Positions 28,613 through 30,938 of a DNA stretch of 32,000 nucleotides are shown here, in pieces. A program made the translations under genes and the position numbers. Source of the DNA: Candidatus Jordarchaeales archaeon (GTDB lineage: Archaea; Asgardarchaeota; Jordiarchaeia; Jordiarchaeales; Freyrarchaeaceae); the NCBI GenBank assembly GCA_038889235.1, contig JAWAHN010000003.1, positions 263,703 to 295,702 on the forward strand, in the 5' to 3' direction. Each line of letters starts with the position of its first letter. Positions within the stretch are counted from its first letter, which is position 1. Below the pieces are notes generated by a model. It did not search any database. It had not been told where the DNA came from and saw only the letters and a program-made list of their open reading frames with translations.

Positions 28613-29173
28613 TTAGGATTCCAGTGTTAGGAGCGCGCCTCTTTCTATGCAGCATTTAACAAGTGCTTCGAACTCGTCTCTAGCTTGCACGGATTCCAGC
28701 TCAACGCTTTCTATGCCGAAAGCCTTCTTTATTCGCTCAGCCTTTTCGCCGTCAAGCTCGAGGACGCCGTCGTCTTCCAGTGCGCCGAGCGCTTCAATAA
28801 CGTAGCGGGCTGCCTCCTCAACCCTGCCCCCCTTCGCGCCGACAGCCACGAGGCCGAGCCTCTCGCACCCTTCCTTCACCCCGAACATTTCGAGGGCCAC
28901 ATTTATCTGCCTTTGCCCCGAAAGCCTGACCAGGATTTCCATTCCGAGACTTCGGGCTATGCGCCTTCCGGCATCACTAGCCTTGACCGCGTTCAGCGTG
29001 CTGAAAAAGACGTGTTCCCACGTAGCGACAAGCGACGCGTCGAAGATCTGCACGACAACCCCGAACTTCGCTTCGGCCTCCCGGGTGAGATGCAAGGCTT
29101 CTTCGATGCCGACAAGACCCCTTAAACCGCATATGCATGCGACGCGGTCACCGTTCAGCTCGACAACCTTCAC
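28613..29173 (-). CDS. cgi121: KEOPS complex subunit Cgi121
   Basis: QIFDA.LV...EH.......A, ARSL.MEILVRLSGQRQI..AL..FG.KEG, I.K.FGI...EL and terminal ER.ALL. Confidence 0.88.
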   Translation of the reverse strand: MKVVELNGDRVACICGLRGLVGIEEALHLTREAEAKFGVVVQIFDASLVATWEHVFFSTLNAVKASDAGRRIARSLGMEILVRLSGQRQINVALEMFGVKEGCERLGLVAVGAKGGRVEEAARYVIEALGALEDDGVLELDGEKAERIKKAFGIESVELESVQARDEFEALVKCCIERGALLTLES

Positions 29174-29783
29174 CCATAACCCCCCTAAACTTCTCCCTCC
29201 ACTTGAGGAGGGGGTCTAGGTATTTAAGCGGGATCGGTATGTTTGCCAGGAACTGTTTTATCTCATGTTCCTCCCGCCCCTCAGCTTTAAGCCTCCCATA
29301 AACGCTCTCTATGCTCTCGAAAAGTTCCCAGGGGTAGATCACCCACGCGTCAGTGACCTCGCCGTAGTAGTCGGGGGTAACTATGCTCCACGGCTTAAAG
29401 TGCAGAGTGGCAACTTTGAGGAGGCTTGCCCCCCTCTCCCTAATGTGGCCGATGACGGCGCGCAGGCTGTGCCCGCTGTCTGCGACGTCGTCGCACAGGA
29501 GCACGCGCTTCCCGGAGACGTCGACTGATAGCGGCTGCGTTATCACGGGCTCCCTCATATGCCTCCCGACGTCAGAGTAAAATTCGACCACGACGGATCC
29601 AACGCATCTAACCGAGAGAAGGTCCGACATGATCCGCGCTACAACCCAGCCTCCGCGCGCGATACCAACTATGACGTCAAACGATAAACCGTCACGTAGG
29701 ATCATGTCGGCCACTTTCATGGCGAGAAAGTAGATTTCATCCCACGTTGGAGCAATAAACTTTAACGATGACGACAAACGCAA
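29148..29783 (-). CDS. Type I phosphoribosyltransferase (archaeal hypoxanthine/guanine/xanthine PRT-like)
   Basis: TWDEIY, IVGIARGG, VLLCDDVADSG.SL (PRPP loop) and W.IYPWE. True start is TTG 29783 or 29777 next to GGGGGT; the tracked extension to 29936 overlaps the tRNA. Confidence 0.88.
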   Translation of the reverse strand: MRLSSSLKFIAPTWDEIYFLAMKVADMILRDGLSFDVIVGIARGGWVVARIMSDLLSVRCVGSVVVEFYSDVGRHMREPVITQPLSVDVSGKRVLLCDDVADSGHSLRAVIGHIRERGASLLKVATLHFKPWSIVTPDYYGEVTDAWVIYPWELFESIESVYGRLKAEGREEHEIKQFLANIPIPLKYLDPLLKWREKFRGVMGEGCRAER

Positions 29784-29836
29784 ACCCCCAATCCACGAAG
29801 AGACAACAAGCCATGAAGAATTCAGGGAAGGGAGTA

Positions 29837-29993
29837 TGGTGGGCGGGCCAGGAGTCACACGCGCACACACGTGCATGCGCGCTTTGAACCCGGGGCCTCC
29901 GGCTCCCGAAGCCGGTTGCATGCGGTGAACCTTCATCGTTCACCGAGTCATACCATGTTCCCCGCTTCATCCGAAGCTCTAGACTACCCGCCC
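29837..29993 (-). tRNA. tRNA-Pro(CGG) with three non-canonical introns (15/16, 25/26, 59/60) and encoded CCA
   Basis: Exons 29993-29979, 29957-29947, 29916-29883 and 29853-29837 join to the 77-nt GGGCGGGTAGTCTAGCATGGTATGACACCGGCTTCGGGAGCCGGAGGCCCCGGGTTCAAATCCTGGCCCGCCCACCA. It has a perfect 7-bp acceptor stem, a CCGGC/GCCGG anticodon stem with CGG at 29908-29906, and a TTCAAAT T-loop. Confidence 0.9.
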
Positions 29994-30009: not shown

Positions 30010-30035
30010 AATTAAAAACGCTTAATTAAATTTTC
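30010..30035 (-). promoter_or_regulatory. Putative TATA/BRE region for the tRNA-Pro gene
   Basis: The minus strand reads GGAAAATTTAATTAAGCGTTTTTAAT 17-42 nt upstream of the mature 5' end. Confidence 0.4.
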
Positions 30036-30185: not shown

Positions 30186-30938
30186 CTACCTGACAAATAT
30201 ATCCTTCGTCTTCTTTTCCATGTCTCTAAGTATGCCCTTGTCAAGACTCTTTGGGTTATAGTACTTGGCCCTCGAGCAGTCGGGAAGCCAGTTTTCAGGT
30301 ACTCTGAAGGTTTTTGCCTCGCTTTGCTGGGTTCTGGGTGACTCAAGGTAACCGTGGCTCTCCGGGGCCACAGGGGCAACCTGGCGTCTCTCGCGTGGAG
30401 TGACGGGAATTCTATCGCTTCTCATGTTTTCCAGCACGCTTGAAATCTGTAGGCGGAGGCTAGATTGAGGGGGTAAGTGGGATTGTGACGAGGGAGTGAG
30501 TGTTTCAATTTCGCTCAACTTTCTCAGGAAAGCTGAAGGTTTAACAAACTGTTCTTCAACTATTCCACCCCCCCTCCCTCCCCCCGCTTCCCGAGCACTT
30601 TTGGGACGCTCCTCGAACTGGGGTACTCGCCTTAAGGTTGGAGCAGGTTCTACCGCCATCTCCCTGTAACCTTGCAGGGTGACGCCGCCTACTCTAGGCT
30701 CATCGGTGCAGGCTTTTCCGCTGGCCGCCTCACCCACATTTTCCTCGCCGGTGAGCTCAACCATTTGAGGCCAGAAGTCCATTCTATCAATCCTACTTTC
30801 AAGCTCGGAGACTTTCTGGTTGATGAAAGCTATCTCCTGTCTTAAAGTATCGATGGAAGACTCAACGAAGAACATGACTTTTTGTATGCCTTCCTCCAGG
30901 TTCTTTATAGAATTCATTATTTCATCTATTTTCTTCAA
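30186..30938 (-). CDS. Hypothetical protein: N-terminal coiled coil plus Pro/Ser/Arg-rich disordered region
   Basis: Heptad pattern over the first ~55 aa, then low complexity. GGAGGAGG RBS before TTG. Confidence 0.65.
   Translation of the reverse strand: MKKIDEIMNSIKNLEEGIQKVMFFVESSIDTLRQEIAFINQKVSELESRIDRMDFWPQMVELTGEENVGEAASGKACTDEPRVGGVTLQGYREMAVEPAPTLRRVPQFEERPKSAREAGGGRGGGIVEEQFVKPSAFLRKLSEIETLTPSSQSHLPPQSSLRLQISSVLENMRSDRIPVTPRERRQVAPVAPESHGYLESPRTQQSEAKTFRVPENWLPDCSRAKYYNPKSLDKGILRDMEKKTKDIFVR

Follow-up and report, generated by a model that had tools for sequence, protein, structure and literature searches.

A tRNA-Pro(CGG) gene with three introns outside the canonical position in a Jordarchaeia (Asgard) archaeon

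The locus and its surroundings

The window, meaning the whole 32,000-nt stretch of DNA that was analysed, carries on its minus strand, from 29993 to 29837, four exons of 15, 11, 34 and 17 nt that join into a tRNA-Pro(CGG) of 77 nt. Introns of 21, 30 and 29 nt are taken out, all on the minus strand and colinear with the coordinates below. The features, listed from the upstream side in the direction of transcription, are as follows.

30021..30035, minus strand: BRE/TATA-like box GAAAATTTAATTAAG, 28-42 nt upstream of the mature 5' end, by direct reading
29979..29993, minus strand: exon 1, 15 nt; acceptor 5' strand, U8, A9, D-stem 5' strand, A14 and G15; part of the ARAGORN cloverleaf
29958..29978, minus strand: intron 1, 21 nt; D-loop, 15/16 (or 16/17); relaxed HBh' motif
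29947..29957, minus strand: exon 2, 11 nt; remainder of the D-loop with G18 G19, and the D-stem 3' strand
29917..29946, minus strand: intron 2, 30 nt; 25/26, between D-stem and anticodon stem; canonical bulge-helix-bulge (BHB) motif
29883..29916, minus strand: exon 3, 34 nt; A26, anticodon arm, variable loop, T-stem 5' strand, T-loop to A59
29908-29906, minus strand: anticodon CGG, inside exon 3
29854..29882, minus strand: intron 3, 29 nt; T-loop, 59/60; hBHBh' motif
29837..29853, minus strand: exon 4, 17 nt; U60, T-stem 3' strand, acceptor 3' strand, discriminator A73 and CCA (29839-29837)

ARAGORN calls the joined 77-mer tRNA-Pro(cgg); in its call the acceptor stem has 7 bp, the anticodon loop reads UUCGGGA and the T-loop UUCAAAU, and discriminator A is followed by an encoded CCA. 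The minimum-energy fold of the 77-mer is the cloverleaf. The D arm, the anticodon arm, the T arm and the 7-bp acceptor stem are complete once the introns are removed; D-stem pair 13-22 of the spliced tRNA is a U-U mismatch. Direct reading of the spliced 77-mer finds U8, A14, G18 G19, U33, G37, G53 T54 T55 C56, A58, C61, A73 and CCA. Universally conserved tRNA bases were enforced or scored by the solver described below, and its top solution has 0 violations. The first-pass annotation of this DNA had proposed a hidden tRNA-Pro(CGG) here, with a 77-nt cloverleaf ending in CCA, an exon 2 of only 11 nt and no intron at the canonical 37/38 site. Its coordinates and strings prove exact: ARAGORN accepts the spliced form, exon 2 occupies 29957-29947, and the introns fall at 15/16 (or 16/17), 25/26 and 59/60. 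A split or permuted tRNA gene was also considered and was rejected, as the four exons are colinear on one strand and lie within 157 nt.

The anticodon arm of tRNA-Pro(CGG) has a single exact occurrence in the whole genome, and the assembly contains no intron-free tRNA-Pro(CGG). The codon CCG makes up about 24% of the Pro codons in long open frames. We regard the gene and its exon and intron layout as established, as we do the conservation, the motifs and the enzyme genes presented below, and we hold with high confidence that 29993-29837 on the minus strand is the sole tRNA-Pro(CGG) gene of this Jordarchaeia (Asgard) archaeon, with three introns that are spliced by proteins.

The box upstream of exon 1 is a putative BRE/TATA promoter. 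Its core, AAAATTTAATTA, stands at the same distance from the gene in the orthologues of three genomes of the same genus; in a fourth genome, of the same family (G004), a box resembling it is found a little more upstream. Before the Pro(UGG) paralogues there is an A/T box at a comparable distance. Directly upstream of the tRNA promoter region, a 250-aa ORF (30186-30938, minus strand) has no Pfam match at E <= 0.001. On the other side, a 262-aa ORF (29148-29936, minus strand) overlaps the tRNA as an artefact of upstream over-extension. In the frame beginning at 29723, residue 7 marks the start of a phosphoribosyltransferase domain, and 29723 is most likely where the phosphoribosyltransferase gene begins, 113 nt downstream of the tRNA CCA.

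At the unspliced locus ARAGORN finds no tRNA, whether run with or without intron search. Rfam applied to the unspliced DNA returns no tRNA match at the gathering score, nor one at E <= 10 when given a 331-nt slice. The earlier suspicion that standard scans may miss the gene is thus borne out for ARAGORN and for Rfam on unspliced DNA. Our own solver, which was blind to the earlier proposal, anchors on a T-arm (its loop optionally split) together with a complementary 7-bp acceptor stem, then enumerates BHB-like candidate introns and threads a cloverleaf template through them; the genome-wide run was limited to loci of 215 nt or less. The top solution at this locus is the proposed set of three introns, with a score of 18, and the best solution with any other anticodon scores 7. 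The six best solutions include five others, which deviate from the proposed set by 1-2 nt and only at the boundaries of intron 1 or intron 3.

Intron motifs and the boundary of intron 1

Each intron contains a hairpin, GCUUC/GAAGC in intron 1, CGGUGAAC/GUUCACCG in intron 2 and CGCGCAUGC/GUGUGCGCG in intron 3, and all three had been described correctly in the first-pass annotation. The same holds for its account of the three splice motifs, namely a clean BHB for intron 2, a BHB with one U-U mismatch for intron 3, and a relaxed motif for intron 1 whose boundary could shift by a base. Intron 2 is canonical. Its H helix, UAUG/CAUG, forms 4/4 central pairs between 3-nt bulges ACU and CAA (cut after AC and after CA), the inner helix has 8 bp, and the 5' bulge and both helices are seen in the minimum-free-energy (MFE) fold of the precursor. 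Intron 3 is near-canonical: the H helix UUCA/UGUG has one U-U mismatch (3/4 pairs), the bulges are AAG and ACU (cut after AA and after AC), the outer helix is the 5-bp T-stem and the inner helix has 9 bp. In intron 1 the H helix, GUCU/GGGG, has 3/4 pairs, two of them G-U, and a G-G mismatch; there is an inner hairpin of 5 bp and no outer helix, and in the precursor MFE fold the GGGG pairs elsewhere. All three cuts, each after the second base of a bulge, give the cloverleaf, and every intron has at least one flanking helix. The pre-tRNA folds at -80 kcal/mol, with z = -4.46 against shuffles.

A boundary check that is free of the motif comes from compact genes of other Asgard families, aligned pairwise with low gap extension. 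The tRNA-Pro(CGG) genes of G026 and G036 have the D-loop intron alone and lack introns 2 and 3; that of G021 has the 25/26 intron alone and lacks introns 1 and 3; and the tRNA-Pro(UGG) of G019 lacks all three. In the alignments to the compact genes of G026 and G036, one gap coincides exactly with the 29 nt of intron 3, and at intron 2 the compact relatives give gaps totalling 30 nt. The gap at intron 1, in the alignment to G021, is 21 nt long and lies one base to the right. These alignments therefore fix the boundaries of introns 2 and 3 and leave that of intron 1 ambiguous by one base.

It is possible, if rather unlikely, that the gene is the same and intron 1 another one, with exon 1 ending at A16 (D-loop AGAAUGGUA) or with an intron of 19 nt and a D-loop of 11 nt; either change would alter the mature tRNA by 1-2 bases relative to the proposed version. 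For the solver, the 19-nt and the 21-nt versions tie at 18 each, and the shifted register appears in its best solutions for most of the Pro(UGG) paralogues. The rightward gap against compact G021, which itself has A16, points the same way. The proposed register, on the other hand, stacks the 5-bp inner helix directly on the H helix and yields a 9-nt D-loop, AGCAUGGUA, with a pyrimidine at 16 as in the compact Pro(UGG) of G019, whereas an 11-nt D-loop with AGAACAUGG is unmatched among the compact relatives seen. We retain the 21-nt intron at 15/16. Because its motif is relaxed, the exact boundary rests on the compact relatives, with a 1-nt ambiguity (C16 or A16). The motif by itself is weak for this intron, and the case for it therefore rests on conservation, on two compensatory pairs in its hairpin and on its absence from G021.

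The sequence GAUGA occurs in introns 1 and 2, and a C/D-box guide RNA within the introns was considered. This candidate was rejected: the D box is absent, and the GAUGA of intron 2, which lies in the loop, is not kept in relatives.

Conservation across Asgard genomes

The class is represented by 11 genomes in our collection. Orthologues were identified in three genomes of the same genus (G001-G003) and one of the same family (G004), in each of which the exact anticodon arm occurs once. All four are tRNA-Pro(CGG) genes with the same three intron sites and with intron lengths of 20-22, 30-32 and 25-30 nt. Identity to this genome is 100% in exons and 82.5% in introns for G002, 100% and 76.8% for G001, 98.7% and 72.8% for G003, and 93.5% and 54.9% for G004. 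Exons 1 and 4 are invariant in 5/5 orthologues, and exon 2 shows one change, in G004. Exon conservation in close relatives, which the first-pass annotation had named as a point on which its proposal could fail, is thus found at 93.5-100% identity in four related genomes.

The pairing of the introns is conserved as well. RNAalifold reports 53 consensus pairs, of which 7 have compensatory changes on both sides; all 7 lie in intron helices, including two in the inner hairpin of intron 1 and four in the inner helix of intron 2. In 5/5 genomes the H helix of intron 2 persists through one-sided changes, the exon strand UAUG being invariant against CAUG, CGUA, CAUA or CGUG. In intron 3 of G004, a change of exon A57 to G is matched by intron changes to give UUCG/CGAG, with 4/4 pairs. 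For introns 1 and 3, RNAalifold places the central helix in a register one to two bases off the BHB register. The covariation in G004 favours the BHB register for intron 3 over the shifted one; for intron 1 the data do not decide between the two.

Introns at the same D-loop site of tRNA-Pro are also observed beyond the family, in G006 (L014, minus strand, 1501-1648), G026 (L010:1441-1549) and G036 (L025:1484-1590, minus strand). The first of these genomes belongs to the sister family, and G026 and G036 are two genomes of a distant Asgard family. The ends of the D-loop intron are conserved (AGC ... GCGGRRAA), and its middle varies in sequence and length. The 25/26 intron is found in the family of this genome and, with a different sequence, in G021. 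The D-loop intron may conceivably be ancient, pre-dating the split of the families and kept for a function, rather than a recent gain, though we consider this doubtful; an ancient intron might, for example, guide modification of the D-arm or serve in quality control of the precursor. Alternatively, the conserved ends may reflect no more than the need to pair with the invariant exon bases G10-U13.

Very little speaks for a tRNA pseudogene in decay, or for a tRNA-like relic, in which insertions have accumulated and processing to a working tRNA has ceased. Such a relic would fit the blindness of standard finders to the locus and the U-U mismatch at D-stem pair 13-22, but the exons are 93.5-100% identical over five genomes while the introns drift to 55%, compensatory changes keep the intron helices paired, no other gene in the genome has this anticodon arm, and a conserved promoter-like box stands upstream. 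Moreover, about 33/34 of the solved tRNA loci in the genome are interrupted, so that interruption is the normal state here. Least credible of all, to the point of being negligible, is chance resemblance, by which three freely chosen deletions could make a cloverleaf from many sequences: relaxed BHB criteria are indeed highly permissive, at roughly one candidate per position by our own estimate, with which the preprint of Goswami et al. (2026) agrees, but the reversed, uncomplemented genome passed through the same pipeline gave 9 anchor loci, where the real genome has 40 (of 215 nt or less), and a single solution, with a score of -3 against 18 at the real locus, and relatives show conservation and covariation, with the same exons shared by the compact relatives. 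Exact-pattern scans of metagenome contigs for spliced junctions 1 and 2 together, and for junction 2 by itself, gave 0 matches; these empty scans carry little weight because mature tRNAs seldom assemble.

The tRNA set, the splicing enzymes and known systems

In this 95%-complete genome ARAGORN reports 14 tRNA genes and Rfam 12 over its cut-off. Our own census solved 34 loci, 33 of them with introns, and ARAGORN accepted 32 after in-silico splicing. The census is rough, since the motif guides intron placement and the anticodons of several low-scoring solutions are implausible. Three introns are seen in 11 of the 27 better-scoring solutions, and four in 6. The commonest sites among these 27 loci are 59/60 (12 loci) and then 37/38 (10 loci), and at 59/60 the T-stem is always the outer helix of the motif. 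The first-pass annotation had surmised that other tRNAs might be hidden in the same way and had called for a survey of the genome; the count of 33 interrupted loci among 34 solved, against 14 ARAGORN genes, agrees with it. Both other proline genes are of this kind: Pro(UGG) at C1:741603-741744 has inserts at the three places of Pro(CGG), and for Pro(GGG), at C1:772863-773029, the best solution of the solver contains four introns.

Several further loci deserve mention. In the sister genus, a tRNA-Pro(UGG) at L023:1501-1683 (G004:C31) apparently has five introns, in the D-loop, at 25/26, at 34/35, in the variable loop at 45/46, and at 58/59. The sole intron-free tRNA gene found in the present genome is a tRNA-Arg(CCG), outside the window at G000:C6:391-465 (plus strand), and its anticodon is also that of an Arg(CCG) gene with three introns at C1:487347-487194. 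Its contig, C6, is 5.7 kb long with a G+C of 0.42, against 0.47-0.51 for the main contigs, and may be foreign, derived from a mobile element or a contamination. Two loci that ARAGORN calls tRNA-Leu(taa), at C1:481105-481197 and C1:1088321-1088413, become tRNA-Ala(CGC) and tRNA-Ala(UGC) when a 16-nt BHB intron at 22/23 is removed, so standard tools mis-type interrupted tRNAs as well as miss them. A tRNA-Thr(ggt) with a 1333-nt intron, reported by ARAGORN at G000:C3:113954-115379, is probably spurious or consists of two unrelated halves; the census puts the Thr(GGU) gene at C2:40673-40551 instead.

The genome encodes two proteins of the EndA family, of 196 and 195 aa, each with PF01974 plus PF02778. 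Paralogue 1 has its closest counterparts in the catalytic subunits of the A. pernix, P. aerophilum and S. tokodaii enzymes (E = 4e-47 to 3P1Z_B), and in the alignment to 3P1Z_B it keeps the catalytic Tyr, His and Lys. Its segment GQPLGIRKPKTPQF aligns ungapped to GQPLDVEKPRGADF of the A. pernix (APE) protein through the Crenarchaea-specific loop, with K51 and K53 in line with loop residues K44 and R46. That loop and its lysine confer cleavage of D-loop introns and relaxed introns (Hirata et al. 2011, PMC3241643). Paralogue 2, encoded at L002:1477-2061 on the minus strand (G000:C3), about 150 kb from the window, is full length and has Val at the column of the catalytic His. It is nearer to the M. 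kandleri, M. jannaschii and ARMAN-type chains than to crenarchaeal beta subunits, and this resemblance suggests an origin of the two-subunit enzyme apart from that of its crenarchaeal equivalent. Candidatus Jordarchaeales and Jordarchaeia MAGs contain the nearest EndA genes (94-95% identity), which confirms the placement of this genome in Jordarchaeia. RtcB is also encoded (600 bits). A set of two paralogues is the arrangement linked to broad specificity. The first-pass annotation had argued that relaxed motifs need a broad-specificity endonuclease and that the EndA of the genome should be typed; a catalytic paralogue together with one that lacks the catalytic His accords with that argument, and from these sequences we would predict an (alpha-beta)2 EndA heterotetramer able to cut relaxed motifs.

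From the gene and the enzymes we infer a course of transcription, of cleavage at exactly these bonds by an EndA of that quaternary structure, and of ligation. The gene's own BRE/TATA-like promoter would drive a precursor of about 157 nt, interrupted at 15/16 (21 nt), 25/26 (30 nt) and 59/60 (29 nt), in which every intron would fold with neighbouring exon bases into a motif of the bulge-helix-bulge type. EndA, probably a heterotetramer of a catalytic subunit with the 'crenarchaeal' loop and a paralogue without the catalytic His, would cut after the second base of each 3-nt bulge. Ligation of the four exons by RtcB would then yield the 77-nt tRNA, its CCA already in place.

For annotation, the outcome is that the only tRNA-Pro(CGG) of the genome is restored. 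Counts of tRNA genes, completeness estimates and estimates of codon capacity made for Jordarchaeia MAGs with standard tools are unreliable, because ARAGORN and Rfam detect roughly one third of the tRNA set here and mis-type some genes. Beyond this correction the gene serves as a clean worked example, well documented by covariation and by a motif-free boundary check, of a phenomenon that is already published and whose picture it does not change; its novelty is low, the kind being known in Jordarchaeia.

Three known systems offer comparison. The pre-tRNA-Thr of A. pernix has a D-loop BHB intron that is cut by an alpha2beta2 EndA and hardly cut by a narrow-specificity EndA (PMC3241643). Here too there is a D-loop intron, and the catalytic paralogue aligns through the loop with Lys at the K44 position. 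Cleavage was demonstrated biochemically in A. pernix, whereas here it is expected by homology. Thermoproteales likewise have up to three introns per tRNA, of BHB, HBh' or hBH type (Sugahara et al. 2007, 2008; PMC4090602), and 25/26 and 59/60 are known non-canonical intron sites of archaea (PMC4090602). The multi-intron tRNAs of Thermoproteales depend on a broad-specificity two-subunit EndA, and two EndA paralogues are present here. The differences are that the host phylum is Asgard and not Thermoproteota, and that the second EndA paralogue is not nearest to crenarchaeal beta subunits.

The closest comparison is within the lineage itself. Asgard archaea had been taken in the first-pass annotation for an unusual lineage for such a gene, a view that does not hold: the genome belongs to Jordarchaeia, published as the most intron-rich for tRNA genes. 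Jordarchaeia is the later name for Freyarchaeia (Valentin-Alvarado et al. 2024, PMC11291895), and in Atabeyarchaeia and Freyarchaeia 92-95% of tRNA genes have introns, often at non-canonical sites, with more than half having several (PMC11291895). In Jordiarchaeaceae and Freyrarchaeaceae there are about 2.0-2.4 intervening sequences per tRNA gene, with a maximum of five in one gene; 30% of intervening sequences, mostly in the D-arm, are missed by tRNAscan-SE, and most genomes have two full-length EndA paralogues (Goswami et al. 2026, preprint, 10.64898/2026.10.13.758758). The gene described here resembles the published Freyarchaeia and Atabeyarchaeia genes in having several introns, mostly non-canonical, with a D-arm intron that escapes annotation and a T-arm intron at a good BHB. 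In view of these two reports it is an ordinary member of a class already known in its lineage; nothing essential separates it from the published multi-intron tRNA genes of Jordarchaeia, and it is one more of that kind.
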